Shown one piece after another: positions 869-47,909 of a stretch of 64,000 bases of DNA (positions within the stretch are counted from its first letter, which is position 1; every line of letters starts with the position of its first letter). This stretch comes from a phage, in sequence record PZ509022.1; one strand, given 5' to 3'. The notes under the pieces are model-generated. The model searched no databases. It was given only the letters and a program-made list of their open reading frames with translations, and was not told the DNA's origin. A program made the translations under genes and the position numbers.

Positions 869-3565
869 TCAGCCAAACAGGAAGTCTAACGAAGCTTTTT
901 CTTCATAGTCCATACCTGCCGATTCACACATACCAGCAAGCGGTTTAACAAACGATTTTTGGAACAAAGTTGAGTAGTCAATCCAAGACAGTACATCAGA
1001 ACGAATTTCTTTTGGAAGTTCTGTACCCGACGGCCAAGCAATGCACTTATCACCAAATGGATTTCCTTCACGCAATGGAAGAACCATTACCTTATTTCCA
1101 TCCAAAATTGGAGCTACACCTAAACCGCTAACAGCTCGACGATAAGTTAGCACACCACGAATATGGAACGGACATTTAAATCCTGGCCAACCTTTATCAT
1201 CATATTTCGCTATATCGTTCGCAGTTTTTACTTCAGCAATAACTTTATAGTCAAGTTGACGATATTCTTTCTCGAAGTTCTTGTAATATTCTTGGACAGA
1301 CTCTTCACCTTCCTGAAGAATACGACGAATACTTTCTTCGAGAGCTTCTTGGACCGCTTTAGGCGTTGAACTCTGCTGAGTTTCCATACCCATGATTTTT
1401 AGATGCGGTTCAGCAAATCGCTTATCTTCCATATCATAAACGTTCAGAGCATAACGCTTTTTCGCTTTCCAAAATCCACCAACGCCCTTTGAACCAAGTG
1501 GAGGGCAAGAAATAGCTTCACGGTCCATATGCATCAGATGCTCGCGGTTATTCATATAATCACATAACTCACGATATGCAACATCAATCATAGGTTCCAT
1601 CTTTTTCTTACCGAACTGATTCATGAATTCAACTAAATCGTTCTGCTCTTTGAATCGGTCAAGACCAACTTTTTCAATAACTTTATCTACACAAACATAT
1701 ACCGAATCAGTATCACCTGCTGCGATGAAATCTTCGCCATTAGTTCCACATACTTTATTCAGATACTCATTAATTTTACGAGCAATCCACTGAATACCGA
1801 CTTGACCAAAAATTGTAATAGCAGTAGCATTTCGCAAATCATAGTAACGGAAATGAATATTACCAAGAGCACCATAAAGACTGTTAATAAGAATTTTACG
1901 GTTCAGCTGATTTGTGTTAGCAAGTGTAGCTGCTTTTTCACATTCCTCAATCAGACTATTGAGAACGGATTCGGTGTAATTCGATAGTTCATTTAAGAAA
2001 TCATCACTGAACTTAACATATCGTTCAACTTCTGGTTTAGTTGAACAAGACCCTGCGCCTTTCATAATAATCTTTTTAATAGCTTCGGCATTCATTTCTT
2101 CAGCGAACATTTTCTTTTTCCAGTCTTTACGCTGGAAAAATACTTTAGCGATTTCCTTTGGAATGATACCTTCTTGGTGCTTATCATACATCCATCCATT
2201 CGGAGAGCAAGAATATTCATCACTTGGCTTAGGAGCTGTTCCTGCGATATATTCATGAATTGGATGAACTTTAAACTGCCCACGAATAGTCTCAGGACTA
2301 ATGTTAACCTGACGAATAATGCTAGGATACAGAGACGTCAAGTCAAAACTCATAATGTATCGACGAGCAATCGGTTTAGGTTCAAACACAAATGCACCTG
2401 GAAAACTCTGTTTAACGTGCGAACCTTGTTGAGGAATAACCTTATGTTCACCTTTCAGTGAGTTAAAAATAATAGCATCCCAAGTTTTAATAGGACTCAT
2501 TACACCAGAAAAAGGCATTTTAGCGTAATAAGACATACTTAAAACTAGATCGATAAACCCACGAATTTTATCAATTGCTTGAACTGATTCTACGTCAATG
2601 ATGTTATAACTAATGTATCGTTGATGATTAGTCTCACGAAGTTTATTAATAGGACCATCGTACGGCAATTTACCTTTTTTGGTTTCATGTTGAGCAACTG
2701 ATTCCAAAGAGAACGATGGCAAATTAGTAAATGCGAACTTCTTGTATAAATCTAAATAATCAAGAATAGATACGCCATCAATAGAATAAATTTCTTTGCT
2801 ACCGTACATATTTTGAATTAGTTTAGATTTTACTCGACCGATTGGAGAGAAGCGTTTCATACTACGTTCACCGAGAACCATTTTAACACGATTCATGATA
2901 TACGGAACGTCAAATCCCTCAATATTCCAACCGGTAAAAATAGCAGGTCGTTTCTGTTCCCAGAGATTAATATATTCCATGAGCATATCACGCTCATTAT
3001 CAAATGGCATATAAATTACTCGGTCAAGAATTTCTTGAGGAACTTCATCACCACCTTCACAGTCAAGCTTAGCAGCTAACTTTGCATCCCATTTTGATAC
3101 TGAACCGTACATTGAATTCAACAAATCAAAGACGTAAAAACGATCGTCAATTGAATCATAATGAGTGATAGCATCAATTTCATATTCTGCTTTCATTGGG
3201 TCAGGAAATTTATCACCAGTAACCTCAATGTCACAGTTAGCTACACGAACAAATTTTCGGTCATAAGCAATTTCTGAACCATATGTATCACTGATATAAG
3301 CGAGTTTAAAATCGTTCATACCGAGAGCTTCGAGACCAATGTCTTCCATTCGTTTCATCCAGTCTCGTGCATCTTTCATTGATGGAAATTTTTGAGGAGC
3401 ACAATTTTTACCATAAATGTCTTTGTATTTTGACTCTTCCTTACAATGCCTAAACATAGTCGGAAGATATTCTACTTCACGGGTACGTTCCTTTCCATTT
3501 TCATCAATATAACGTTCAACAATGTTATTTCCGACTGTTTCGATAGAGATATAAAATTCTTTCAT
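869..3565 (-). CDS. 43: DNA polymerase (family B, T4 gp43), 898 aa
   Basis: 898 aa, length and sequence as I recall T4 gp43; exo and polymerase motifs (FDIE, YGDTDS). Confidence 0.97.
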   Translation of the reverse strand: MKEFYISIETVGNNIVERYIDENGKERTREVEYLPTMFRHCKEESKYKDIYGKNCAPQKFPSMKDARDWMKRMEDIGLEALGMNDFKLAYISDTYGSEIAYDRKFVRVANCDIEVTGDKFPDPMKAEYEIDAITHYDSIDDRFYVFDLLNSMYGSVSKWDAKLAAKLDCEGGDEVPQEILDRVIYMPFDNERDMLMEYINLWEQKRPAIFTGWNIEGFDVPYIMNRVKMVLGERSMKRFSPIGRVKSKLIQNMYGSKEIYSIDGVSILDYLDLYKKFAFTNLPSFSLESVAQHETKKGKLPYDGPINKLRETNHQRYISYNIIDVESVQAIDKIRGFIDLVLSMSYYAKMPFSGVMSPIKTWDAIIFNSLKGEHKVIPQQGSHVKQSFPGAFVFEPKPIARRYIMSFDLTSLYPSIIRQVNISPETIRGQFKVHPIHEYIAGTAPKPSDEYSCSPNGWMYDKHQEGIIPKEIAKVFFQRKDWKKKMFAEEMNAEAIKKIIMKGAGSCSTKPEVERYVKFSDDFLNELSNYTESVLNSLIEECEKAATLANTNQLNRKILINSLYGALGNIHFRYYDLRNATAITIFGQVGIQWIARKINEYLNKVCGTNGEDFIAAGDTDSVYVCVDKVIEKVGLDRFKEQNDLVEFMNQFGKKKMEPMIDVAYRELCDYMNNREHLMHMDREAISCPPLGSKGVGGFWKAKKRYALNVYDMEDKRFAEPHLKIMGMETQQSSTPKAVQEALEESIRRILQEGEESVQEYYKNFEKEYRQLDYKVIAEVKTANDIAKYDDKGWPGFKCPFHIRGVLTYRRAVSGLGVAPILDGNKVMVLPLREGNPFGDKCIAWPSGTELPKEIRSDVLSWIDYSTLFQKSFVKPLAGMCESAGMDYEEKASLDFLFG

Positions 3566-4238: not shown

Positions 4239-4802
4239 TTACCATTCCAATGCTAGTTTTTTGAGTTGTTTCTGTTCTTTTACGTTCTTAGTCACTTCTT
4301 TCAAAAAATCATCCGTGACTAAACCTTTAAGTTCTTTTAATACTAAAGGTAGTTTTCCATTTTTAGTAAGAATTGATTTATAGTTAATTGCATCATTTGT
4401 ATTAACTTGATACCGTTTAGTAAGTAACTTAATAATCAATACTTCGGTGGAATCTTCAACCAGTTTTGCCCATTTACCATATCTTTTACCACGAGGAACT
4501 GCAGCCATTAGATAATTAAAATGAGCTTCATCACTTAATCCAGAACCGATTAAATTCATTGCATATACAGCTGGCATGCATTCTGGAAATTGTGATAATG
4601 CATTTTCAACCATGAATTTTGAATAATCTTTTTGAGCAATAGAGCATTTAGTTTTATTATTGATAGCTCCAATTATTTCAAAAAATTCATTTTCGGCTTT
4701 TTCTTTAAAAGAATCAGCAGCGGATTGGACAGCTGTCCAATCTTTTGAATACCAAGCAATCTGATGCTCGTTTAATTGAATATCATCTTCAAATAAGCTC
4801 AT
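4239..4802 (-). CDS. 62: clamp loader small subunit gp62 (187 aa)
   Basis: length and synteny with 44/45. Confidence 0.88.
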
Positions 4803-7199: not shown

Positions 7200-8882
7200 T
7201 TAAACCATTACAGTAAATCGACCAACTTTCTTCATTTGAAGATGCTGACCGTATGCTTGTGGGTCATGGTCTCTATGCGAAATAACAAAAACATTAGTAT
7301 TTTTTAAACTATCTAAAATAGTTGAAATAGCTTTTACACCTTCAACGTCGGTCGCTGAATCAAAAACTTCATCAAGAATTAGTGTGTTTATTTTAACACC
7401 TGAAACTTTTTCAGCAATATCACGCCAAGTAAATAAAATAGCAATATCAATTCGTGCTTTTTCACCTTGACTGAATGAAGCATAACTAAAATCTTCACGA
7501 CCACGGGATTTAATTGTCTCATTAAATTCTTCATCTAATGTAAACACATAATCCGCTTCCATTATTTTAAGATAATAGTTAATCTGCTTATTAAATAATG
7601 GAATGTACTTTTTAATAATAGCACCTTTAATACCAGAATCTTTGAGCATATCAGTCAAAATTCCTCGGTGGTATTTTTCCATTACTAAATTAGTTTTTGT
7701 CTTAACAATTTTATCAAGTTCTTCTTGAAGCAGTGCTATTTCATCAGCATGGTCAATAAACTCAGAAGATGCTTTTTCTATAGCCGCTTTAACTTTTTTA
7801 GCTTTATCTACTGCTGCGATCAGAGATTGCTTTTTATTGCGAATATCATTTGCCAACGACTGCTGAGTTTTAATATTATCTCGGTATTCATCAACAAGAA
7901 CTTTTAAATTATCACGATGTGTTGAAAGCTGTTCAAACGAATGCGTGCATTCAGAAACTTTATCTTTAATTTTAGAAACAACTTTATCACCGGAACTCAA
8001 TTGTGACAAACAGGTTGGACATAATCCACCTTCGTGATACATATTAATGACTTTATTATACGAGTCAATTTTTGATTTAATTAAAACTGCTTCTTGACCG
8101 ATTTTATTAAATGCATCAGTCGGGTCTTCATCTAAAACAATATTAACTAATCTTTCATTAGCTTCTTCTATTTCCGATTTTAGCGTTCTAGCTTCTTTTG
8201 CCAAATCATCATACATATTTTGCAGACGAGTAAGGTTGTCACCAGTTAATTTTTTCTGGCGTTCAACATTATCATTATATATTTTAATTTGTTGGATAAT
8301 ACTATCTTTTTTAACATCAAGCACTTGGTTTTGTGAATTTAATTCACGTATTAGTGCTTTATTAAGCTTATCCATTTCAGCTAATGTTCCTACCTCAAGC
8401 AGGTCTTCCACAAGCTTTCTTCGTGCAGGGGTCGACAAACCCATGAAAGGGGTATACCCTGCTGTACCAAGGACAACAATCTGCTTGAAACTGGCATATG
8501 ACATTCCGATAAGCTGTTCAAATTCTGCTTGGAAATCTTTACTGCTGGCAGATTCATTAAGACGTGTACCGTTAACGGTGATTTCAAAAACGTTCGGTTT
8601 TTGTCCTCTTTTGATATAGTACTTTTTCTCATCATATTCCATCCACAGTTCAACTAAAAGTTCTTTCTTATTTGTGCTGTTTATTAATTGACCTTTCTTT
8701 ACATCACGAAATGGCTTGCCAAAAAGCCCAAATGTGATGGCTTCTAACATAGTAGACTTACCACCGCCATTTCGGCCAGTAATAAGAGTTTTTTGAACCT
8801 TATCTAATTGAATGTCAATCCCATTTTGACCAACTGACATTATATTTTTATATTTTACTCTATTAAGTTTAAAATTCTTCAC
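7200..8882 (-). CDS. 46: recombination endonuclease subunit gp46 (Rad50/SbcC-like, 560 aa)
   Basis: N-terminal P-loop GRNGGGKST, long coiled coil, C-terminal signature/D-loop. Confidence 0.93.
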   Translation of the reverse strand: MKNFKLNRVKYKNIMSVGQNGIDIQLDKVQKTLITGRNGGGKSTMLEAITFGLFGKPFRDVKKGQLINSTNKKELLVELWMEYDEKKYYIKRGQKPNVFEITVNGTRLNESASSKDFQAEFEQLIGMSYASFKQIVVLGTAGYTPFMGLSTPARRKLVEDLLEVGTLAEMDKLNKALIRELNSQNQVLDVKKDSIIQQIKIYNDNVERQKKLTGDNLTRLQNMYDDLAKEARTLKSEIEEANERLVNIVLDEDPTDAFNKIGQEAVLIKSKIDSYNKVINMYHEGGLCPTCLSQLSSGDKVVSKIKDKVSECTHSFEQLSTHRDNLKVLVDEYRDNIKTQQSLANDIRNKKQSLIAAVDKAKKVKAAIEKASSEFIDHADEIALLQEELDKIVKTKTNLVMEKYHRGILTDMLKDSGIKGAIIKKYIPLFNKQINYYLKIMEADYVFTLDEEFNETIKSRGREDFSYASFSQGEKARIDIAILFTWRDIAEKVSGVKINTLILDEVFDSATDVEGVKAISTILDSLKNTNVFVISHRDHDPQAYGQHLQMKKVGRFTVMV

Positions 8883-9094
8883 AAAAGATTCCTTTTAATG
8901 TATCTTTTAGACCATTCTATCATATCATCATAATCTAAAAAGTATTCATCAAATTCAGCCATGCAAACAACACCTTGTGCTGCTTTTGATGTGATATAAA
9001 TTATTCCAACATATCTAGAATCTTCTTCGGTATAATCAATATTTGCTATGAATTCATCATTAATGTCAAATGTCGAAAACTTCACAGTATGCAT
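8879..9094 (-). CDS. hypothetical protein (46.1 position)
   Basis: ORF 8879..9142 trimmed to internal Met. Confidence 0.45.
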   Translation of the reverse strand: MHTVKFSTFDINDEFIANIDYTEEDSRYVGIIYITSKAAQGVVCMAEFDEYFLDYDDMIEWSKRYIKRNLL

Positions 9095-10523: not shown

Positions 10524-11724
10524 ATTTTGTAATAATGTCAAACTGTTCTTTAAAGCAGAAGCTTGAATCTTGATGCTGATACAAAAATTCATATGCTTTT
10601 TCTCGCTCACGGTCATAAAGAGCTCTGTCAGATGACAGTTCTTTAATACGCTCGAATGTTGATTCCATGTCATTTTCATCAAACCAAATGATACCGCTAT
10701 CATGCGAGGTCAAAGGAGTATTATCAACACGGAATTTTAAATTTTCGCCAGTAGATTTCCAGAAAACAGGAATTGTACCGCAAGCACCTAATTCAAGATG
10801 AGTATATTCTAGTGAGCGTTGTAAGTATTTCTGGTTAAGTTTACTCAACTGATATCCAAAGCCAGATTTACTCATTCGTTCAAGCATTTCACTATTAATA
10901 TAACAATCTAGGATTTGTGCCGGTTGATTCGGCGTGAGATTCATTTTATCGATCTCACGATTACCGTAATATTCATACGGAATACCTTTTTCCTTAATTG
11001 CAATAAAAGCAGGGGAACGTTCAAGACCTTCCATTACAGTGGATTTACCAGCAGGTTTTAAGAATTTTTCATGAAAATCAAACATCTGATAAAAACCTTT
11101 CCATGTAGTCGTACGACCAATCCAACGGTTGATGTTCATGTTAATTTCAGAAACATCTTTCCAATAAGTTGACCGAACCTTCGCAATATCCATAGGAGGC
11201 TGAAAGTTATATACTGTTGGTGCTTCTTCAATATCATCAAACAGAGAAACAGTTTCTGGATACCATTCTTTCATCAAAACTTTATTAAAATCGCCATTAT
11301 CAGAATGACTAAAAATAACATCAGCTCGACGAACAGTTTCTTCTAATCCCAAATTTCGACGCAAAGAAAGAACAGAATGATCATGCTGATAAACTACAAC
11401 ACGAATAGAAGGTTTAATATTATCTAAAAGTTTTTTATAGTTATTAATCGTGGCTTCTTGAACGGAAGTAGCAGGAACAGAATTAATAATTAGAATATCA
11501 CAATCATTTACCAGCTTAAGTGCTTTATCGTATTCTTTAGCTAAAATAACTGGAATTGAAAATGATTTGTGGTCATGAGAACTTGTACGAGTAAATGATT
11601 TATCTTTAGCATAAACCAAAGTTACTTCATGACCATTTTTAATAAACCAATCACGCTGCTCAAGAGAAAATTTAGTTACACCGCAACCTTCAAGACCTCG
11701 AGCCATAAAAATACATACTTTCAT
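10522..11724 (-). CDS. a-gt: DNA alpha-glucosyltransferase (400 aa)
   Basis: 400 aa at the T4 a-gt position between 47 and 55. Confidence 0.85.
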   Translation of the reverse strand: MKVCIFMARGLEGCGVTKFSLEQRDWFIKNGHEVTLVYAKDKSFTRTSSHDHKSFSIPVILAKEYDKALKLVNDCDILIINSVPATSVQEATINNYKKLLDNIKPSIRVVVYQHDHSVLSLRRNLGLEETVRRADVIFSHSDNGDFNKVLMKEWYPETVSLFDDIEEAPTVYNFQPPMDIAKVRSTYWKDVSEINMNINRWIGRTTTWKGFYQMFDFHEKFLKPAGKSTVMEGLERSPAFIAIKEKGIPYEYYGNREIDKMNLTPNQPAQILDCYINSEMLERMSKSGFGYQLSKLNQKYLQRSLEYTHLELGACGTIPVFWKSTGENLKFRVDNTPLTSHDSGIIWFDENDMESTFERIKELSSDRALYDREREKAYEFLYQHQDSSFCFKEQFDIITK

Positions 11725-11775
11725 TTAATATCCTCTTTGTTTTGGTTTATTTTACCAAAAATTTATAAAGCAATA

Positions 11776-11793
11776 TAGGAGCCGAAGCTCCTA
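11776..11793 (-). terminator. UUCG-loop hairpin
   Basis: taggagc-cgaa-gctccta. Confidence 0.4.
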
Positions 11794-11982
11794 TCCGCAT
11801 AATACGCCATACAGAGGCTCATTAGAACTTCTAAATTTTATGCGCTTATATGTTATAGTTCCTTCTGCTTTAGCTTTATCGTAAGACTCTTGAAAGCGTC
11901 TCATCATTTCTACTTTAGAGGAACGAATTTTATTATAATCTATTTCAGAAGTCTGGTGTTCATCTTTCATAACTGCCACCAT
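11791..11982 (-). CDS. hypothetical protein
   Basis: ORF track 63 aa. Confidence 0.4.
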   Translation of the reverse strand: MVAVMKDEHQTSEIDYNKIRSSKVEMMRRFQESYDKAKAEGTITYKRIKFRSSNEPLYGVLCG

Positions 11983-12173
11983 TTTTTAACTTGATAAGAA
12001 TCAACCCACACTTTCATATTAGGGTCTGCTCTTACAATAGGAGGATTAACTTCTTTAATTGAACTATCATGGTATTCTTTTTCAGAAATTTTCACACAAA
12101 GATGACCATTCAAAGATTCAGTAAATCCTGCATTAATTTTAAGACGCTTGAATTTTACGTGTGTAAGCATCAA
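11967..12173 (-). CDS. hypothetical protein
   Basis: ORF track 68 aa. Confidence 0.4.
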   Translation of the reverse strand: MMLTHVKFKRLKINAGFTESLNGHLCVKISEKEYHDSSIKEVNPPIVRADPNMKVWVDSYQVKKWWQL

Positions 12174-12456
12174 TCATATCCTCAATCTGCGATCTAGTAG
12201 TCTTCCAAAGAATACTGATGAGTTCATCGTTATATGGCTGTTTTAGAATATCCCGACTTTTCTTGATAGCATATTCGTATTGAGCAAAATTATTATTTTC
12301 AGCCGCAATCTGAGCGTGCTTATAAAGACGATTCAGTTCGCGTTTATTTTTAGACAATAACTTATTTGCTTTTCTTTCTGCTTCAAGACGGTTCTTTTCT
12401 TCAATAGAAGAAATAAGCTTTTCCACTTCATCATTAATTTCGGGTTTATCAGTCAT
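12139..12456 (-). CDS. hypothetical protein
   Basis: ORF track 105 aa. Confidence 0.45.
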   Translation of the reverse strand: MTDKPEINDEVEKLISSIEEKNRLEAERKANKLLSKNKRELNRLYKHAQIAAENNNFAQYEYAIKKSRDILKQPYNDELISILWKTTRSQIEDMIDAYTRKIQAS

Positions 12457-12457
12457 A

Positions 12458-12676
12458 TTATTTCTCTAATATAAAATAAAAATCATCATCTGTTAAATGA
12501 TACCGATAGTTTAATTCTACACCATTAGATTTAAAAGCGGTATCATACGGATTTTCTGGATCAATATCAATGTCAAGAGCTAAAACTTCCCTGAGATACA
12601 TTTTAAGTAAATAGGGAATAGCTTCAACTTCAGGTATTTCTTCCAAGAATCCGGAGAGGTTAATCGTTAGCCTCAT
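12458..12676 (-). CDS. hypothetical protein
   Basis: ORF track 72 aa, abuts gp55. Confidence 0.45.
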
Positions 12677-13217
12677 ATAAAAAATCCAAACTAGGAGAAT
12701 CGTCTACAACACTTTTCTTTTCAGCCCCTGGTGTTCTATAGGTTGATTCTTCGTAATGCGTCATTTTATCGTAGATGTCTTGAATAAAAGTTTCATCTAC
12801 TAACGCAACCATATCGTCGTCACGGCTGTCATAGACATTGTGAACGAAGTAACTATATTTCTTTGCAACTTCCTTACGTTCTTTTTTAATACGTTGGACG
12901 AATGCATTAAAACAAGCTTGAGTTATATACGCATGTGGGTTTTTATATTTCGTTTCATCAAAATTGTGAAGTCCCTTAATAGAAGCTTCTATACCATCTG
13001 CAATCATTTCTTGTTTCCAAGACTGGGTGTATCCTGAAAAGTTGAAACGTTTAGATAAGCCTTCTGCAATAAGCATAATGGCTAATCCGATAGTATCATT
13101 CTGACGAACTACTTTATTTGGGTCTTTATTATTTGCTAATTCTGTTTTCCAATCAATAATAGCTTGTAAAAGCTCTTTATTGTTTACGTAATTATATTTA
13201 GGCTTAGTTTCTGACAT
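12660..13217 (-). CDS. 55: late-transcription sigma factor gp55 (185 aa)
   Basis: start set at [10 protein letters not shown]; 185 aa. Confidence 0.9.
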
Positions 13218-19330: not shown

Positions 19331-19371
19331 AATAAACCCTTACCTTAAATAGATAAGGGTATTTATTATTT

Positions 19372-38363: not shown

Positions 38364-38780
38364 TTAAATGTAAATATTTTTGCCGTAATACTTATACCAG
38401 TGTGGCTTCATTAAAATTTTTTCATCGAGTCGTTGTTGACTCAACTTAATAGCTGATTTGCATGGATTATAATCATTTTTCCATTCTACTGGAATATCGC
38501 TGATGTCAGGAACTTCAGTATCTTTTATACTGAACCCGCGTTTTAAGCATTCCGTTATAATGTCCGATTGACGCTTTCGCAAAAATTCTAACTTATCGTA
38601 AAAGAAAGTAACATGACCAGAACCTAAAATAAATTTAGAAGATATTTTAAAATCTTTAACACGCTTACCATTTGCCACATGCTTACGAACTATACCAAAA
38701 ACACGCGGCAATTCACGGTATTCTGCGATTAAATGTTGATCAGCAAGTTCAGATACTAAAGTCAAATTAATACGAGTCAT
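38364..38780 (-). CDS. denV: endonuclease V, pyrimidine-dimer DNA glycosylase (138 aa)
   Basis: 138 aa, N-terminal [17 protein letters not shown] as in T4 DenV. Confidence 0.9.
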
Positions 38781-38803
38781 TTTATCCCTCCAAGTAACTG
38801 TGA

Positions 38804-38835
38804 ATATACTATCACAATTCTAGGAGAAAGTAAAC
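38804..38835 (-). promoter_or_regulatory. T4-type early promoter
   Basis: plus atatactatcac ... gtaaac. Confidence 0.5.
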
Positions 38836-38839
38836 AACT

Positions 38840-39370
<531 letters not shown>

Positions 39371-39826
39371 TTAAAAGAGGCTGTTCATTATTCGGTAAAG
39401 TGAAGGACCCATCACATATTGCCACTGAGTACGAGGAATAAGAGCAAAAGCATCCATCTCTGGAATCATAACGCCATCTTTATTTTCAAAATAAGACTCG
39501 CAATGGCAATTTCTAAACATCTCATGCTCTACTGGAATCGTATAATAAAATAACTGTAAGTCTTTATTACTAGAATATTTAAATACACCTAGGTCTTCTA
39601 GAAGGTCTGGATTATAATTGCTAAAACCGGTCTCTTCTAAGCATTCTCTTTTTGCAGCTTCCAGTGCATTCAAATCAGAACTTTCTACACGTCCCTTTGG
39701 AATATCCCAGCGATGTGCCATCATTCCAGGCTTACGAGAACCAGTAACCCGACCCATAAATAAATCTTTATCTTCTGTCATGAAGATAATACCAGCTGAT
39801 AATGTTTTCATTTTAATTTCCTGCAT
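39371..39826 (-). CDS. nudE: Nudix hydrolase (151 aa)
   Basis: Nudix box GRVESSDLNALEAAKRECLEETGF. Confidence 0.8.
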   Translation of the reverse strand: MQEIKMKTLSAGIIFMTEDKDLFMGRVTGSRKPGMMAHRWDIPKGRVESSDLNALEAAKRECLEETGFSNYNPDLLEDLGVFKYSSNKDLQLFYYTIPVEHEMFRNCHCESYFENKDGVMIPEMDAFALIPRTQWQYVMGPSLYRIMNSLF

Positions 39827-40296
39827 TCAGTGATAAAGTTATTTAAATTTTGAGTATATTTCTTTTCATCAAAAATCTTTTGTTGTCTGCGTAGCCGCCA
39901 TGGCATTTCAATGAACGTGTACCATATCCCAGATAATATTGATGCTGTAAAAATATTAACAAGTATGGTTAAAAGAATCCAATCTCCTATTCTGTCCATT
40001 GGATTTTTTATAAAAAAGTAAAATACGAATGATGACACAGGAAGACTAATGATATACCACAGAATCATAATCTTATCTGTGAACCATTCAGCATTCGTTA
40101 ACTTAGCACGACCATTATGAATACACACGAATTTATCATCTGTTACAGTAGATGGCTTAACTGCTTGATATCCCATTCTAAACTCCCTAATTAATCGTTT
40201 CTTTGTATCTTCAGAACAGCCGCTCCAGTCAACTCTATCAACTGAAATGCCATCGTCCCCATCATCTAAATCATACCAGCGAGTTTTTAAAATCAT
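39808..40296 (-). CDS. 2-TM membrane protein, paralog family member (162 aa)
   Basis: two TM segments; C-terminal NNFITECRKLK. Confidence 0.5.
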   Translation of the reverse strand: MILKTRWYDLDDGDDGISVDRVDWSGCSEDTKKRLIREFRMGYQAVKPSTVTDDKFVCIHNGRAKLTNAEWFTDKIMILWYIISLPVSSFVFYFFIKNPMDRIGDWILLTILVNIFTASILSGIWYTFIEMPWRLRRQQKIFDEKKYTQNLNNFITECRKLK

Positions 40297-41050: not shown

Positions 41051-41612
41051 ATTTTTCTAGTAATAAATCACTTTCAAAATTGGGATTTTCTACAAATTTA
41101 TCAAAAAGATCATCAACAATAGTTAAGATATTCTTTTTACTAAGAATACGTTTATTTTCATGCTTCGTTTCAGAATCAACTATAAGAGTAAAGAAATATT
41201 TCTTGCCCTGAAATTTTACAGTAGTATCAATATAAAATAAATTTGACTTTTGTAAATTACGTTTAAACCATGCGTCACTTAAACTATAAACACCGAGATA
41301 ATCAAAATCGTCGTTTAAATAACAAACCGTCCATTCAGGAGAAATGAAATCAGTAAATTCAACATCAAAATCACACGTCAATGAATGAATTGATTCAATA
41401 CTGTTAATGAGTATTCCAGGACGTATTAAAGACTTTTTACCTCTAGAAAATCTTCCGGAAAGGCTTTCATCAGTTTCATATGAAGACCCCCAATAGTAAT
41501 TACGTCCTTCTGCCATGCGTTTAAGAGCATTTAGTAATTGGTCTGGAACATCAACCTGTCTTTGGAACTCTTCAAACATTGAATTGAAATCACTTTGCAT
41601 TTTCATTTTCAT
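40998..41612 (-). CDS. hypothetical protein (204 aa)
   Basis: ORF track. Confidence 0.5.
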   Translation of the reverse strand: MKMKMQSDFNSMFEEFQRQVDVPDQLLNALKRMAEGRNYYWGSSYETDESLSGRFSRGKKSLIRPGILINSIESIHSLTCDFDVEFTDFISPEWTVCYLNDDFDYLGVYSLSDAWFKRNLQKSNLFYIDTTVKFQGKKYFFTLIVDSETKHENKRILSKKNILTIVDDLFDKFVENPNFESDLLLEKFVKECREYVKTITIPSK

Positions 41613-41631
41613 TCCTATTTACTCCAAGTAT

Positions 41632-41649
41632 AAGGGGCCGAAGCCCCTT
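41632..41649 (-). terminator. UUCG-loop hairpin aaggggc-cgaa-gcccctt
   Basis: inverted repeat. Confidence 0.5.
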
Positions 41650-41653
41650 ATCA

Positions 41654-42247
41654 TTATTTCAGAGAATTAATGTATTCCTGAACATCGGCAGAGGTAGTTT
41701 CAACCCCAGAAATATTACCGTTAAAGGTTTCAACTCGAGCAAGGGTATCTTCAATATCAACCTTAGTCAGTGCTGCAATTTCAACTACATCATCAGCAGT
41801 ACTAATTCCAAGGGCATTTGCTGCACGAGTTTCACGGATATATTCCAATTTAACCGCAAGTTCTTGACGAGCATCATCTAACTCAACTACTTTCTTGGCG
41901 ATTTCAATTCGCATTTCAGCATAACCGTCAGCCTTAGTAGTCAACTGCTCAGCTGTTCGACGATATAGTAAACCGAGTTTAGCATGCATTGTTACATCTT
42001 GGCCTTCGGAAAGAAGTTTACGAATTTCACGCTCTTTTGATTCGGCCTGTCGATTCTTTTCGATAACAAGTTCACGAATACGTTTTTCTTCGTTAATAGA
42101 TTTAACAGAAGCAGTTTTTAGATCTTTAATTTTATCAAGTAGTTTTGCTGCTGCAGCAGTATACTGTTCTTCGACAGATAGATTTTTAGCCATAGCAGAA
42201 CCAAGTTTAGTGCGAATAAACTCAACAATTTTCTTCAGTGTGTTCAT
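41654..42247 (-). CDS. hypothetical coiled-coil protein (197 aa)
   Basis: ORF track. Confidence 0.5.
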
Positions 42248-42348
42248 AGTATTTCCTTAGGTTAATTGAGATTTAAAATCCGTAGGAGTATAATACTCTA
42301 TCGTCAAATTATAGGCTCATAATATCTCAATCATGAGCCTGCGTAAAC

Positions 42349-42612
42349 TTATTTCATATTATTGAAATATTCTTCTGCGATTTCGTCGTTATCATGGTAA
42401 ACTTTAGAAGACAGTTTAACATAACCTTCTGCTGTGAACATATTAATCACAACTTTTACAGTATACCACTGACCGTCTTCATTACCCATTACTGCGTAAG
42501 TTTCAAACATCGGATGATCAGGACCGATAACTTTAATATCATTCACTGTACGACCGAAATATTCTGAAACGCATTTCATAAAGAAGTTGAACAGTTCGCC
42601 GTAATTATCCAT
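42349..42612 (-). CDS. hypothetical protein (87 aa)
   Basis: ORF 42349..42732 trimmed to MDNYGELF; upstream residues are promoter-repeat read-through. Confidence 0.45.
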   Translation of the reverse strand: MDNYGELFNFFMKCVSEYFGRTVNDIKVIGPDHPMFETYAVMGNEDGQWYTVKVVINMFTAEGYVKLSSKVYHDNDEIAEEYFNNMK

Positions 42613-42654
42613 TTCATTCTCCAAGTTGTTTTCTGTATCAGTAGTTGATAGTTG

Positions 42655-42685
42655 TATAGTACCATGGAAGAACAGAGATGTAAAC
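42655..42685 (-). promoter_or_regulatory. T4-type early promoter (near-identical copy of the 721-751 element)
   Basis: plus tatagtaccatggaagaaca...tgtaaacagttttgtgaaaa. Confidence 0.55.
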
Positions 42686-42797
42686 AGTTTTGTGAAAAAA
42701 TTTTTAGGGAATTCTAGGGCAGGGATGGGCAATTAAAGGATAGGATAATATATTATAAAGGGTATAAACTAAATGATGCCTAGAGAGGTCCAGAAAG

Positions 42798-42826
42798 GCC
42801 TAGATACCAAAAAGCCCTATCATTTA
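42798..42826 (-). terminator. hairpin plus U-run on minus strand
   Basis: rc atccctatc-taaat-gatagggc followed by TTTTT. Confidence 0.5.
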
Positions 42827-42841
42827 GATAGGGATTTAAAA

Positions 42842-43405
42842 TTATTTACCTAGTTTACTTATTATAGCTTCTGCAGCAGCTTTTAGCTTAGATGCAGTGT
42901 TAATACGATTTTTAATTTCAGTATACGCATCGCCAAGAACATCAAGGCTATCAGAATAAACACTTACACTATTGCGTTCGCTATTTGAAATAGAACCTTT
43001 AGTTTTGCGGTCAAAATCGGTGTACACGTCTTGAAGATCGCGGGCTGCCTTCTTTGCATCATCCAATGCATCAAGAGCTTTATTCAAAGCATTAACGTAT
43101 TTTTTAGTGTCGAACATATTCTTAGAAATTTTAACAGGTGCGCGTTCAGGAGTAGCTAACACAGATTTAGGAACCTGAGCGCCAGATGCCAATTTCTTAG
43201 AAATTTTGAAAAATGCTTTATTGAATTTATTTTCTTGACTCATTGTAAAAGAACTATTATCGATGTTGTACATTTCAATAGCTTTAGCTTTCCACTTAAG
43301 AAAATCGCCGCGGTCTTTTGGGTCCAATTGGAAGAATACTTTAGTAAGATCTGCTTCAGATGGTAATTTTGCTGCTTCGGTTAAAAATTCGGCATAGGTT
43401 TTCAT
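42842..43405 (-). CDS. internal-protein-like, N-terminal capsid-targeting-like sequence MKTYAEFLTEA (187 aa)
   Basis: N-terminus resembles the T4 IP targeting peptide as I recall it (MKTYQEFIAEA); Glu-Ala junction consistent with prohead protease processing. Confidence 0.5.
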   Translation of the reverse strand: MKTYAEFLTEAAKLPSEADLTKVFFQLDPKDRGDFLKWKAKAIEMYNIDNSSFTMSQENKFNKAFFKISKKLASGAQVPKSVLATPERAPVKISKNMFDTKKYVNALNKALDALDDAKKAARDLQDVYTDFDRKTKGSISNSERNSVSVYSDSLDVLGDAYTEIKNRINTASKLKAAAEAIISKLGK

Positions 43406-43496
43406 TTAAAATCCTTGAAATAATTTATCGGTTGGTTATTAATTATTTATTACTTTGTTACTATCCGTAACAGCGTTATCCGAGTGATTCAAACTA

Positions 43497-43530
43497 AAAA
43501 GCCCCAACCTTTCGGTCGGGGCTAAGCCTT
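43497..43530 (-). terminator. rho-independent terminator closing the tRNA/stable-RNA unit
   Basis: rc gccccgaccgaaaggttggggc followed by TTTTTAGTTT. Confidence 0.6.
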
Positions 43531-43834
43531 GCGGCAACCTTGTCGGGGTTCCACCTGCTAAGGCAAGTGTTTGTACGAAACGCCGGGATTCGAACCCGGT
43601 TATTAAGCAGTTGACGCTACTCAATATTTTTAAAAGGCCATATCTCGACCATATCCGAACGTTCCGTCAAAAACGCTACTCGGCTTACGGCAAAGATATT
43701 TCCTCGAATCGATAATTCGGTGCGCCGTTTCTGCTGTGATGTAAGGGGATATTAACAAATCGTAAAGATTTGTTAAGACCAGTCCTTACTCAGGGAACAT
43801 CAGTCCGACGACTTACCGGTAGCGACCCGGTTTC
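43531..43834 (-). ncRNA. candidate stable small RNA(s) distal to the tRNA island (analogous to T4 RNA C/D)
   Basis: about 300 nt without credible ORF, locally GC-richer, T-arm-like ccgggTTCGAATcccgg element on minus strand, bounded by a terminator; boundaries approximate. Confidence 0.35.
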
Positions 43835-44185
43835 TTAATATTCTTTTAAAGCATCAATCTGTTCACGGCGTTTACGCCATAAATCAATTGCTTCATACGC
43901 AGATTCAGCATTTCGAATTAGACGGCATTTATATAAAGACTCGTGATTTTGATATTGCGTAGATAACGTAATTTTATCTAAAAGGTCTTTACGTTCAAAG
44001 TATTCGTAACCATCTAAGCCAAATGAACGATTTTTGAGAAATTGCCAATGACCATATTCGTTTTCGACATAAACATAATCCGCGTGTTGATAAAGCAAAT
44101 TAATTACACGTTCAGAAATAACAGTGTCATTGTGATTAAAATAAAATGTTAAATCATGAACTACTAAATAAACATTACCTTTCAT
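43835..44185 (-). CDS. hypothetical protein (116 aa) between tRNA-Arg and the small-RNA region
   Basis: ORF track. Confidence 0.5.
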   Translation of the reverse strand: MKGNVYLVVHDLTFYFNHNDTVISERVINLLYQHADYVYVENEYGHWQFLKNRSFGLDGYEYFERKDLLDKITLSTQYQNHESLYKCRLIRNAESAYEAIDLWRKRREQIDALKEY

Positions 44186-44201
44186 ATTTTCCTCACTTAA
44201 T

Positions 44202-44277
44202 TGGTCGAGGCAGTAGGGATCGAACCTACGACCTAGGACTTAGAAGGTCCTTGCTCTTCCTTCTGAGCTATGCCCCG
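44202..44277 (-). tRNA. tRNA-Arg (anticodon UCU)
   Basis: hand-folded cloverleaf; AC stem AGGAC/GTCCT, loop CTTCTAA; CCA encoded. Confidence 0.8.
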
Positions 44278-44281
44278 TAAT

Positions 44282-44357
44282 TGGGGTGACCGATGGGAGT
44301 CGAACCCATGACTACGAGAATCACAATCTCGAGTTCTACCAACTGAACTACGGCCAC
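44282..44357 (-). tRNA. tRNA-His (anticodon GUG)
   Basis: hand-folded; loop TTGTGAT; T-loop TTCGACT; discriminator C. Confidence 0.7.
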
Positions 44358-44471
44358 ATTAATACCTACTCCAACAATCAAGATGTCTTCACACGAAATT
44401 AAGAGAAGAGTGATCAGTTCAACCCCGATAATCGCGTCAAGTAGATATTAATGTGACAATTGTCACAAATT

Positions 44472-44546
44472 TGGCGGACGTGATAGGATTCGAACCTATA
44501 ACCAATCGCTTAACAGGCGATCGCTCTGCCATTGAGCTACACATCC
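44472..44546 (-). tRNA. tRNA-Asn (anticodon GUU)
   Basis: hand-folded; AC stem ATCGC/GCGAT, loop CTGTTAA. Confidence 0.75.
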
Positions 44547-44550
44547 AAAT

Positions 44551-44637
44551 TGGTGGGGAGTGATGGAGTCGAACCACCCGAGTCGCAATGACAATGGATT
44601 TACAGTCCACACCGCTACCTCTACGGGATAACTCCCC
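44551..44637 (-). tRNA. tRNA-Tyr (anticodon GUA), class II with long variable arm
   Basis: hand-folded; loop CTGTAAA; 15-nt variable arm. Confidence 0.7.
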
Positions 44638-44650
44638 TTAATTCTTAATT

Positions 44651-44725
44651 TGGTGGCCCTGGGTGGAATTGAACCACCATCTGGCGATTATGAGTCGCTT
44701 GCTTGAACCTTCCAGCTACAGGGCC
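44651..44725 (-). tRNA. tRNA with CAU anticodon (Ile2 or Met)
   Basis: hand-folded; loop CTCATAA; order after Ser-Thr matches the T4 Ile position. Confidence 0.7.
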
Positions 44726-44726
44726 T

Positions 44727-44802
44727 TGGTGCTGATTGACGGAATCGAACCGCCGACCTTCTCATTACAAGTGAGTTGCTCTACCTACTGAGCTAAATCA
44801 GC
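44727..44802 (-). tRNA. tRNA-Thr (anticodon UGU)
   Basis: hand-folded; loop CTTGTAA. Confidence 0.75.
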
Positions 44803-44807
44803 AAAAC

Positions 44808-44897
44808 TGGCGGAGGCGATAGGATTTGAACCTATGAGTCGCCGGAGCGACTGCCGGTTTTCAAGACCGGTGCATTAAACCACTCTGCCACGCCTCC
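44808..44897 (-). tRNA. tRNA-Ser (anticodon UGA), class II
   Basis: hand-folded; AC stem CCGGT/ACCGG, loop CTTGAAA, long variable arm. Confidence 0.8.
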
Positions 44898-44900
44898 AAA

Positions 44901-44908
44901 TATTTATA
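44901..44908 (-). promoter_or_regulatory. possible late promoter (rc TATAAATA) between segB and tRNA-Ser
   Basis: plus tatttata; only 4 nt from tRNA 5' end, so uncertain. Confidence 0.25.
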
Positions 44909-45554
44909 TATTGTTAATTTGATTTAGAATTCTTTTTGCTTGAGTATGACTTACACCAATATGCTTAGCATATTTAGATAATTCACCACGCTTAGAAAAA
45001 TCATATAATTTAGAAATTTCTATTCTTCTTTTTCTTTCATCCGCCGAAACTTTTGCTTCGTTTGCTTTTGCTATTTTACGTTTAGCTTCTTGAGAGTGAG
45101 TTTTACCAGCAAAGCCATTCTTCATTAATCCATTTGAAGACCATCCTTTTAATTTTCCGTTAGAATGTGCCTTTTTAACACCCAATGAAATTAATTCGCG
45201 TTGCTGGTCTGTCATAGGATAATTATTTATATGATCCCATCCACCTTCACCACCAAGTTTTAAATTATACACATCTGGTCTATTTAAAAACTCTTCCGTG
45301 ACAATATTTTTCTCGGCTTCAAGCATAGATTCTTTATCATCAAAATACTCTAATATTTCTTTAGAAAAATTTTCTATACCATACTTATCTTGGGCTCTTT
45401 TTAATAATTTACCAGAACCCATATATCCATCATCTAAATTTTCGGTAGAATGCACACCAATATAAATTTTATTATTAATTTTATTTGTTATTTTATAAAG
45501 ATAAAAATGCATATCAGTCCCTAATAAAGAACTGAGCGTCTCACGACGAGTCAT
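44904..45554 (-). CDS. segB: GIY-YIG homing endonuclease SegB (216 aa) inside the tRNA island
   Basis: FYLYKITNKINNKIYIGVH GIY-YIG motif; NUMOD3-like GKTHSQEAKRKIAKA. Confidence 0.85.
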   Translation of the reverse strand: MTRRETLSSLLGTDMHFYLYKITNKINNKIYIGVHSTENLDDGYMGSGKLLKRAQDKYGIENFSKEILEYFDDKESMLEAEKNIVTEEFLNRPDVYNLKLGGEGGWDHINNYPMTDQQRELISLGVKKAHSNGKLKGWSSNGLMKNGFAGKTHSQEAKRKIAKANEAKVSADERKRRIEISKLYDFSKRGELSKYAKHIGVSHTQAKRILNQINNI

Positions 45555-45558
45555 AAAT

Positions 45559-45632
<74 letters not shown>

Positions 45633-45637
45633 AAATT

Positions 45638-45724
45638 TGGTGCGAGAAGTGGGACTCGAACCCACAAGGAAATCATTCCGCAGCATTTTAAGTGCTGTGC
45701 CTTTACCAATTTGACCATTCTCGC
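45638..45724 (-). tRNA. tRNA-Leu (anticodon UAA), class II
   Basis: hand-folded; AC stem CAGCA/TGCTG, loop CTTAAAA. Confidence 0.8.
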
Positions 45725-45725
45725 G

Positions 45726-45799
45726 CTGGGAATAAAGGACTCGAACCTTTGCATCCTGGAATCAAAATCCAGTGCCTTACCAACTTGGCTAATTCCCAA
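45726..45799 (-). tRNA. tRNA-Gln (anticodon UUG), CCA apparently not encoded
   Basis: hand-folded; acceptor TGGGAAT/ATTCCCA, AC stem CTGGA/TCCAG, loop TTTTGAT. Confidence 0.75.
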
Positions 45800-45895
45800 T
45801 TATTAACAAAGGCTCTCAAGCAAGAACCCTTGATGATAGAGGGTATTAATCAGTGCGATATGAGTTAATAATAACAAATAATTCTTAAAGCATAT

Positions 45896-46183
45896 TTACC
45901 ATTTATGATAATACATATTTATGATGCATTCAAGACCCAAAGGATTCTTGAAAATATCATATTCAAGAGGACCTTTTTCTGTTTCAATAAAGAAATCAAA
46001 ATTTACTGTATTAAATTTACGATCTTCCTTTACTAATTTAACCTGCGAAGATGAACGATCAATGTAAACCTTTTCAACTTCAAAACATGTTAAAATGCCA
46101 TAATCATTAATCAAGGCTTTAGCTGCTTCTTGATCATATTTATATCCATTTTCAACAGACGATACTTTTGCATAAAGAATCAT
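45896..46183 (-). CDS. hypothetical protein (95 aa)
   Basis: ORF track. Confidence 0.45.
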   Translation of the reverse strand: MILYAKVSSVENGYKYDQEAAKALINDYGILTCFEVEKVYIDRSSSQVKLVKEDRKFNTVNFDFFIETEKGPLEYDIFKNPLGLECIINMYYHKW

Positions 46184-46185
46184 TA

Positions 46186-46590
46186 TTAACCTTTATCAAC
46201 AATAGTGTGAGTATGGGCATTTACAATTTGCCACCAATCGAAACTATCGCCAAATCGTTTTGATTTATTGTCTTCAATAATTTGACGTAATTCATCTTCT
46301 GTTTCAGCATACGCAATCAAATCATCATATCCACCGCAAGGATAATAATTATCGCCTGCAAACAAAAGAAAATTTACTTTAGATGGGTCTACATAATAAT
46401 GCTCTTTAGGATATTTAGTTCCTTTCCAATCAGTTACTTCAACATAACGGTAAGAAAATCCATTTTTACTTTCAACCCAACTCCACGCTTCAAAAGGAGT
46501 ATTAAAAACTCTATCAGGTATTAAATTACCTTCAAAATGAGAAGGATTTGCATAATCCCCAGCATAAACATAATATTCGTTAATATTCAT
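46186..46590 (-). CDS. hypothetical protein (134 aa)
   Basis: ORF track. Confidence 0.5.
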   Translation of the reverse strand: MNINEYYVYAGDYANPSHFEGNLIPDRVFNTPFEAWSWVESKNGFSYRYVEVTDWKGTKYPKEHYYVDPSKVNFLLFAGDNYYPCGGYDDLIAYAETEDELRQIIEDNKSKRFGDSFDWWQIVNAHTHTIVDKG

Positions 46591-46776
46591 TTATTCACCT
46601 TTAGAAATTTTATCCATAACGATAGCAATTAAACCAATTAAAAATGCTACTACAAGTGAAAAAACATTTTCTGCTGTAGTCAATAATCCGCATATAAATC
46701 CAACAAACATTGAAAAACTAAAAGCAGAAGCAGAAATTGCAATAGCAACATTTCGAATTAATTCACAACGTTTCAT
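46591..46776 (-). CDS. small membrane protein (61 aa)
   Basis: two hydrophobic segments; early promoter upstream. Confidence 0.45.
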   Translation of the reverse strand: MKRCELIRNVAIAISASAFSFSMFVGFICGLLTTAENVFSLVVAFLIGLIAIVMDKISKGE

Positions 46777-46800
46777 TTTATTCTCCTCGGTAGTTGATAG

Positions 46801-46833
46801 GGTAATAGTATCACAACTAAAACCCTATGTAAA
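46801..46833 (-). promoter_or_regulatory. T4-type early promoter
   Basis: plus taatagtatcac ... tgtaaacaactttgtgaaa. Confidence 0.5.
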
Positions 46834-46852
46834 CAACTTTGTGAAATATTTA

Positions 46853-47140
46853 TTACAAAAGATTTTTAGCAATAATCTTGAGATGTGCTGCAGAAATGTG
46901 TTTAGCTTTAAACAACGCAGTTTCTTCGGCAGGAGAGATAACGATTGTAGCACCATCCTTTTTAGCAGACCACCCATCACCTAGGTAAACAGTACCTTTG
47001 ATTTCTTCGCCATCAACCAAGCTAATCATTGGTTTACCTTCTCGTCCTTTATTTGCTTTAATAACTTCAGAAGTAAGAGTAGCCTCGGTAATGGTAGAAA
47101 CCGGGGTAGTTGTAGAAGTAAATTCTTTAAATGTTTTCAT
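46853..47140 (-). CDS. ipI: internal protein I-like (95 aa) with N-terminal MKTFKEF targeting-like peptide
   Basis: 95 aa at the T4 ipI position just upstream of 57B; own early promoter. Confidence 0.55.
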   Translation of the reverse strand: MKTFKEFTSTTTPVSTITEATLTSEVIKANKGREGKPMISLVDGEEIKGTVYLGDGWSAKKDGATIVISPAEETALFKAKHISAAHLKIIAKNLL

Positions 47141-47168
47141 TTTATTTTCCTAATTAATTTTGATGAGA

Positions 47169-47200
47169 TAATAGTATCACTACCTCATCAACGTGTAAAC
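47169..47200 (-). promoter_or_regulatory. T4-type early promoter
   Basis: plus taatagtatcac ... tgtaaacaactttgtgaaa. Confidence 0.5.
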
Positions 47201-47212
47201 AACTTTGTGAAA

Positions 47213-47909
<697 letters not shown>

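Follow-up and report, generated by a model that had tools for sequence, protein, structure and literature searches.

The 187-aa ORF lying between the e.x genes and the tRNA island of the phage DNA analyzed here probably encodes a previously unannotated internal (i.e., head-packaged) protein of the T4 type, which would define a new family. This DNA, hereinafter the window, is a 64-kb part of a T4-like (Tequatrovirus) genome, with the genes of the region under discussion on the minus strand. Its features are best explained by an overlooked family of internal proteins (IPs) at a third, hitherto unrecognized IP locus, which would be situated between the tRNA/rnaC terminator and e.8 and would have the 187-aa gene as one of its cassettes. 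From its sequence we infer the packaging, cleavage, injection and target of the product. The gene and the elements at its 5′ end are as follows:

42842..43405, minus strand: CDS of the candidate IP precursor, 187 aa plus stop, ATG start, N-terminus MKTYAEFLTEAAKLP
43376..43405, minus strand: propeptide resembling a capsid-targeting sequence, MKTYAEFLTE, codons 1–10, with the gp21 cut predicted after Glu10 (LTE/A; here and below the slash marks the cut)
43412..43416, minus strand: ribosome-binding site AAGGA, 6 nt 5′ of the ATG, read directly from the sequence
43444..43451, minus strand: putative weak late promoter AATAAATA, agreeing at 7/8 positions with TATAAATA, the late-promoter box of T4, and lying 38 nt 5′ of the ATG

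The ORF is a real gene: it is present in 165 phage records, in all of them with at least 85% protein identity (megablast and tblastn), shows a dN/dS of 0.11 and has its own ribosome-binding site and terminator. The dN/dS value was obtained from the alleles of the window and RB69, which show 19 synonymous and nine non-synonymous differences, and indicates that the reading frame is under purifying selection. The AATAAATA box 5′ of the gene is kept in KarlGJung and RB69. No canonical TATAAATA was found on the same strand within 42000–44500, nor any canonical promoter, late or early, that could serve the gene in the window; as the box near the gene is AATAAATA and not TATAAATA, late expression is a tentative prediction for this copy. 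The sequence TAATAAATA also occurs 29 nt 5′ of gene 49, both in the window and in T4, and Barth et al. in 1988 reportedly located the late promoter of gene 49 at that position. As regards gene 49 (endonuclease VII) itself, AATAAATA is the sole late-promoter-like box 5′ of it (19360–19367 in the window and about 4380–4390 in the T4 stretch), and in both genomes this box sits just 5′ of the hairpin that masks the gene 49 ribosome-binding site.

The case for an IP begins with the N-terminus. A preliminary description of the ORF had pointed to its resemblance to the targeting peptide of the T4 IPs, and alignment bears this out: in the T4 record both IPII and IPIII start with MKTYQEFIAE/A, as compared to MKTYAEFLTE/A in the candidate, and BLASTP against T4 IPIII returns an alignment limited to residues 1–12, with 8/12 identical and 10/12 positive positions. 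Since the similarity ends at residue 12, homology of the mature part to IPIII was ruled out. The tag is not a frequent string in DNA of this composition: the pattern MKT[YFW].[ED]F has two matches in the six frames of the window, each at the start of an ORF, against an expectation of 0.0037 per window and none in 100 shuffles. The other match is ipI, and the window contains no further tag-bearing ORF.

The residues retained are those with established roles in T4. Work by Mullaney and Black showed that residues 1–10 of IPIII are enough for head incorporation, and ten such residues package foreign proteins in T4; suppressor analysis assigned targeting mainly to residues 4 and 7 and processing to residues 8 and 10, while the prohead protease gp21 cleaves after the Glu in (L/I)-x-E (all reviewed in PMC9026906). 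The candidate has the targeting determinants Tyr4 and Phe7, the same as in IPII and IPIII, and the processing determinants Leu8 and Glu10 followed by Ala11. L8-T9-E10/A11 is the single [LI]xE of the whole 187-aa protein, with Ala coming next as in IPI, IPII and IPIII. The predicted mature candidate, starting at Ala11 with AAKLPSEADLTK, has 177 aa, a mass of 19.6 kDa, a pI of 9.54, 32 Lys+Arg and no Cys, closely comparable to processed IPIII (IPIII*; 183 aa, 20.4 kDa, pI 9.65, 33 Lys+Arg, no Cys). We also considered depletion of the gp21 motif in the mature parts as a signature of residence in the head, and it received no support: across 18 family members 21 [LI]xE were observed versus 19.7 expected, i.e., no depletion, and the lack of the motif in the mature part of the candidate itself has P = 0.42.

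The surroundings of the gene display the anatomy of a discrete insertion:

43496..43525, minus strand: intrinsic terminator closing the tRNA/rnaD/rnaC transcription unit, TTAGCCCCGACCGAAAGGTTGGGGCTTTTT, from a terminator scan; upstream boundary of the cassette
42809..43495, minus strand: 687-bp cassette missing in T2, T4 and T6, made up of leader, ribosome-binding site, 187-aa ORF and a terminator of its own
42809..42833, minus strand: intrinsic terminator belonging to the cassette, CCCTATCTAAATGATAGGGCTTTTT, located by the terminator scan 8 nt past the stop

When aligned to T4, the window shows identity through rnaD, rnaC and the operon terminator that ends exactly after GGGGCTTTTT and restarts at GGTATCTA, past the candidate's terminator with its end ...ATAGGGCTTTTT. 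The T4 junction accordingly reads GGGGCTTTTT/GGTATCTAAGCC and that of the window GGGGCTTTTT/AGTTTGAATC...ATAGGGCTTTTT/GGTATCTAGGCC, the slash here denoting the junction; this break and restart place the gene within the 687-bp cassette. The 9-nt GGGCTTTTT, which forms the last 9 nt of the rnaC terminator (43504–43496), recurs at the end of the cassette terminator, so that the cassette is flanked by a 9-bp direct repeat that is the 3′ half of two terminators. The junctions are identical in RB69, and the cassette terminator is annotated as such in the records of fPS-90, fPS-65 and SP1. The GC content of the cassette (34.4%) is close to that of the window (34.8%). The site is empty in T4, T2 and T6, where e.8 and tRNA-Arg are about 550 bp apart.

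Several further differences were noted in the neighborhood of the site. T4 lacks the 116-aa ORF that lies at 43835–44185, between tRNA-Arg and rnaD, whereas T2, KarlGJung and RB69 (as ORF150c) have it. The tRNA island at 44202–45798 comprises 10 tRNAs (Arg, His, Asn, Tyr, Met-CAT, Thr, Ser, Gly, Leu and Gln) and lacks tRNA-Pro; a GIY-YIG endonuclease gene resembling segB (44904..45554) splits it. T4 has eight tRNAs, Pro and Ile among them. At the e.2 position, 39808–40296, there is a 162-aa ORF that by its sequence looks like a membrane protein, as compared to the 102 aa of T4 e.2; a CDS of the same length is found at this position in KarlGJung and T6, and a 163-aa one is annotated there as e.2 in RB69.

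The two classical IP loci of the window are as follows:

46853..47140, minus strand: ipI, its 95-aa product 100% identical to internal protein I of T4; Pfam IPI_T4 E = 7.3e-54
38781..38839, no strand: empty ipII/ipIII slot, the 59-bp denV–e intergenic region

The ORF at 46853–47140, earlier noted as a second tag-bearing candidate at the ipI position, thus turns out to be T4 IPI residue for residue; it matches PHROG 4363 (internal virion protein) and Pfam IPI_T4 with 180 bits. Likewise, the proposed gap of about 60 bp between denV and e, without ipII or ipIII, measures 59 bp (denV, 38364..38780; e, 38840..39334), whereas in the T4 record both genes sit between denV and e. We discarded the idea that such an empty slot is unusual: up to 274 of 596 records have a contiguous denV–e junction, this being an upper bound that counts records with one match covering at least 80% of the junction, a few of which join across a small insert. 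Of 60 rows sampled at even spacing, 25 were single uninterrupted full-length junction matches. A second idea, that the 187-aa gene replaces ipIII, was likewise dropped. A combined query with the 187-aa gene and ipIII matched 420 places in 370 records, which means that at most about 50 records, e.g., Shfl2, hold both. The empty ipII/ipIII slot is hence a common polymorphism that is uncoupled from the 187-aa gene. In a separate observation, the ipI position of JS98 (NC_010105) has two ORFs, starting MKSYKEFLTE/A (69 aa) and MKTYQEFIKE/S (97 aa), at 2507–2716 and 2796–3089 of the stretch examined, both of which are unannotated in RefSeq.

The carriers of the 187-aa gene include RB14, Shfl2, pSs-1, HY03, HP3 and BASEL phages, and the gene is absent from T2, T4, T6 and PST. 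Throughout the matches listed it is called a hypothetical or "phage" protein, as it is in protein-cluster names, save for one stray automated label. It matches PHROG 2280 (function unknown) with E = 2e-53 over residues 1–181 against positions 1–178 of the 178-position profile, and a Pfam search returned no family match, PF11634 (IPI_T4) included. An exhaustive HMMER search against 1.8 billion proteins recovered one full-length relative (31% identity, E = 2.6e-6), and searches seeded by that relative and by the alignment yielded about 45 additional proteins. The N-termini of these homologues read, among others, MITFNEFLNE/S, MLNFKEFIAE/S, MLKFKDILTE/S and MRFKEFLTE/T. Full-length homologues of 25–31% identity retain the pattern M..[FY].[EDQ][FI][LIT].E with S, A or T as the next residue; across the 12-sequence family alignment Glu10 does not vary, and [LI]xE is found at residues 8–10 (or 7–9) in 17 of the 18 full-length members, the one exception resembling IPI in having the cleavage site at residues 15–17.

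In JS98 (Dhakavirus), HX01 and RB69 (Mosigvirus) and PG7 (Karamvirus), homologues are found with the tRNA cluster on one side and e.8 on the other. Those of JS98, HX01 and PG7 have a canonical TATAAATA right after a terminator, 25–35 nt before the ATG. The persistence of the tag at the protein level despite this divergence, together with the late promoters, constitutes the strongest indirect evidence that these sequences offer for loading into the prohead. The location, first described as non-canonical, is so relative to T4 only: the tRNA-to-e.8 position is syntenic in four Tevenvirinae genera, and a paralogue occurs there in 403 records, so that with the site empty in T2, T4 and T6 it is the locus that is conserved and T4 that deviates.

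This paralogue was identified in KarlGJung (Bas37), which has an additional cassette between rnaC and the 187-aa gene, with the 30-nt rnaC terminator repeated identically on either side of it. The cassette contains a 157-aa ORF (bas37_0244; 8330–8905 of the MZ501089 stretch) with the start MKSYTQFLNE/A, preceded by a perfect late promoter TATAAATA. This ORF belongs to the family as a distant paralogue (E = 2e-10 to JS98 orf135), is called hypothetical throughout the matches listed for its 403 records, and is absent from the window, T2, T4 and T6. Its identification with the IpIV of PST was rejected, the two being equal in length and unrelated in sequence. The site is therefore an array of zero, one or two tag-bearing cassettes, of which the classical T-even phages have zero. 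These cassettes are evidently gained and lost via recombination between the terminator repeats.

Relatives have other tag-bearing ORFs at the tRNA-to-e.8 locus, an ART-PolyVal protein being among them. In the Logan contig from SRR28624380, a 144-aa ART-PolyVal/DUF3990 protein with the N-terminus MITFKQFLNE/S is encoded at 2092–2526, beside a homologue of the family; judging from its tag, this protein is possibly an ADP-ribosyltransferase that is packaged in the head and distinct from Alt.

RB69 has the cassette at 94.9% nucleotide identity to the window. Its reference copy has a 1-nt deletion that splits the gene into ORF149c and ORF148c, indicating that the gene is dispensable in the laboratory, which is equally true of the known IPs. 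The similarity extends beyond the cassette: an identity of 89.5% is seen between 10889–12862 of the RB69 stretch and 42314–44277 of the window, which comprises tRNA-Arg, the 116-aa ORF, rnaD/rnaC, the candidate and e.8, whereas most of the 38–48 kb region shows 69–76% identity between the window and RB69. This combination of a similar block, a still more similar cassette and divergent flanks suggests a recent lateral exchange of the tRNA-Arg-to-e.8 block between Mosigvirus and Tequatrovirus, two genera which are said not to recombine freely. Among deposited phages no end-to-end match was found to the 6.1 kb at 41600–47700, the best reaching 95% coverage and 97.2% identity in six pieces, from which the window emerges as a mosaic of alleles. 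The alleles that it combines are a T4-type ipI, the empty denV–e slot and, unaccompanied by the 157-aa cassette, the 187-aa one.

An AlphaFold2 model of the candidate, built with the 12-sequence alignment (mean pLDDT 78.7), predicts two domains joined by a disordered linker (residues 76–94):

43181..43372, minus strand: small helical N-domain, residues 12–75, AlphaFold2 helices 17–26, 35–45 and 55–73, pLDDT 72–87
42848..43123, minus strand: C-domain, residues 95–186, confidently predicted by AlphaFold2 as a bundle of three long helices

The N-domain is the best conserved part across the wider family, with the core RGDFLKWKAKAIEMYNID matching ERGDFMKFSA.VQKLYGID, and its mean pairwise identity among the non-Tequatrovirus members is 70.6%. 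Among the same members the C-terminal 85 residues have 37.4% identity and fall into two unrelated classes. The mature part gave no match to a characterized IP, an anti-restriction protein, a Pfam family or a solved fold; without an informative match, any target named for it is a guess.

We propose that the 187-aa protein would be made late in infection and that MKTYAEFLTE would act as a capsid-targeting sequence directing it to the scaffolding core of the prohead, where gp21 would cut after Glu10 (L-T-E/A). The 177-residue, 19.6-kDa, lysine-rich product (pI 9.5) would stay in the head with the DNA, from where it would be ejected with the genome into the next host. Of these steps, packaging and processing can be predicted with good confidence. 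As for what the protein might do after injection, each of the T4 proteins Ip1, Ip2 and Ip3 inhibits a GmrSD-type type IV restriction enzyme of its own; the three have only the leader in common, and the authors of that work expect other IP-locus proteins to target further GmrSD variants (PMC12373910; 10.1101/2022.04.14.488369). Given that Ip1–3 are specific GmrSD inhibitors, the most likely role of the candidate would, by analogy, be the neutralization of a first-line host defense. Placing its target within the GmrSD family of type IV restriction systems is a more tentative step along the same analogy, and we found no sequence or fold similarity between the candidate and IPI. The genera carrying the family have different cytosine modifications. 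A single enzyme specific for glucosyl-hmC thus fits poorly as a universal target.

A broader reading, which we offer as doubtful speculation, is that the tRNA/rnaC-to-e.8 site might be a general "injected-effector island" of the Tevenvirinae, i.e., a terminator-bounded array with all of its genes tagged. The family would then be a two-module effector, in which a conserved N-domain serves packaging, DNA association or delivery, and swappable C-domains act against different host immune systems, not only GmrSD, with enzymes such as the ART-PolyVal ADP-ribosyltransferase apparently loaded by the same route.

A packaged and processed protein might, however, have a mainly physical role, serving in place of IPIII as a lysine-rich, DNA-associated bulk protein that contributes to charge neutralization and to genome condensation or ejection. 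The near equality with IPIII* in size, pI and charge is in keeping with this, as is the fact that, with neither ipII nor ipIII in the window, the candidate would be its only large IP. Moreover, lysines of the T4 IPs contact DNA phosphates (PMC3012670), the linkers of the homologues are rich in Pro, Ala and Lys like histone-tail-like DNA binders, and the 70.6% conservation of the N-domain across genera is as would be expected for a phage-internal partner. Yet the linker of the candidate itself is short and not rich in Pro, Ala and Lys, the gene is uncoupled from the absence of ipIII (up to about 50 records have both, including Shfl2), and T2, T4 and T6 manage without it. IPIII itself, long considered structural, is a specific GmrSD inhibitor (PMC12373910). 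We therefore view a mainly physical role as unlikely.

The two remaining alternatives deny that the protein is injected. In one, the product would be a cytoplasmic accessory protein, with the DNA of the tag and the leader being kept as a recombination site for cassette shuffling. The locus clearly evolves by gain and loss of cassettes between short repeats, which would suit this explanation, as would the window's want of a canonical late promoter near the gene; nor is there proteomic support for a virion protein, our search of the literature having found no virion proteomics for carriers (fPS-65/90, RB14, Shfl2, HY03, pSs-1, JS98 and Tequatrovirus generally). However, the tag is conserved in protein rather than in DNA, down to the cleavage Glu, in homologues of 25–31% identity from several genera, and the recombination junctions lie in the terminators and not in the tag. 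When the late promoters of the homologues and the sufficiency of ten such residues for packaging foreign proteins in T4 (PMC9026906) are added, this explanation becomes quite improbable. In the other, the protein would be a minor prohead-core or scaffold accessory comparable to gp67 or gp68, which is degraded and expelled at maturation. An N-terminal gp21 site combined with a helical, coiled-coil-like C-domain is indeed seen in scaffold proteins, but core proteins are cut into several fragments (PMC9026906), as opposed to the single [LI]xE at residues 8–10 here, and the variable presence of the gene, with its absence from T2, T4 and T6, is unlike that of an assembly component, leaving this option with hardly any probability.

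If the 187-aa protein is a head-packaged IP, as we favor, its significance lies in part in the breadth of the family: of about 600 Tequatrovirus-type records, 403 have the paralogue and 165 the 187-aa gene, with relatives in at least three other genera. That both are called hypothetical throughout the matches listed is apparently due to their absence from all of T2, T4 and T6. As all three T4 IPs are specific GmrSD inhibitors, each new tag-bearing protein is a candidate for anti-defense activity and a probe for host defenses. Therapeutic or biocontrol isolates are numerous among the carriers, and for these an injected host-range determinant, if this is one, would be of practical relevance.

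Among known systems, IPII and IPIII offer the closest comparison. They share with the candidate a nearly identical 10-residue targeting propeptide with an (I/L)-x-E/A gp21 site and a basic, Cys-free mature protein, IPIII being also close to it in size; in both cases the genes are non-essential and variably present, each with its own terminator. In contrast, there is no detectable similarity past residue 12, ipII and ipIII lie between denV and e while the candidate comes after the rnaC terminator, and their promoters are of the early stem-loop type, unlike the leader of the candidate. Packaging, injection and a GmrSD target have been demonstrated for IPII and IPIII, whereas for the candidate they are predicted. 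IPI (Ip1, PF11634), which the window also encodes, carries a targeting propeptide of the kind seen in the candidate and, as an injected anti-restriction inhibitor of GmrSD, provides by analogy the model for the function proposed for the candidate. It differs in having a 19-residue propeptide and a 76-residue α/β fold, while two domains, both helical throughout, are predicted for the candidate.

The polymorphic IP set of the T-even phages (Repoila et al. 1994; e.g., IpIV, IpV and IpVI of PST and the "internal head protein 7" of T2) consists of unrelated small proteins that have only the targeting sequence in common and are swapped among close phages, and the same principle is seen here. Those genes occur at the two classical loci, ipI and ipII/ipIII, whereas the candidate family is at a third site; in none of the records listed is the family named as an IP, and an earlier mention by Repoila et al. 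is possible. Finally, the PeSL mobile cassettes of T4-type phages (Arbiol 2010, Comeau 2014) are, as here, single-gene modules bounded by stem-loops that give rise to recombinational indels. However, PeSLs are stem-loops with early promoters, whereas the repeats at the candidate locus are intrinsic terminators, followed in the paralogues and homologues by a late promoter.
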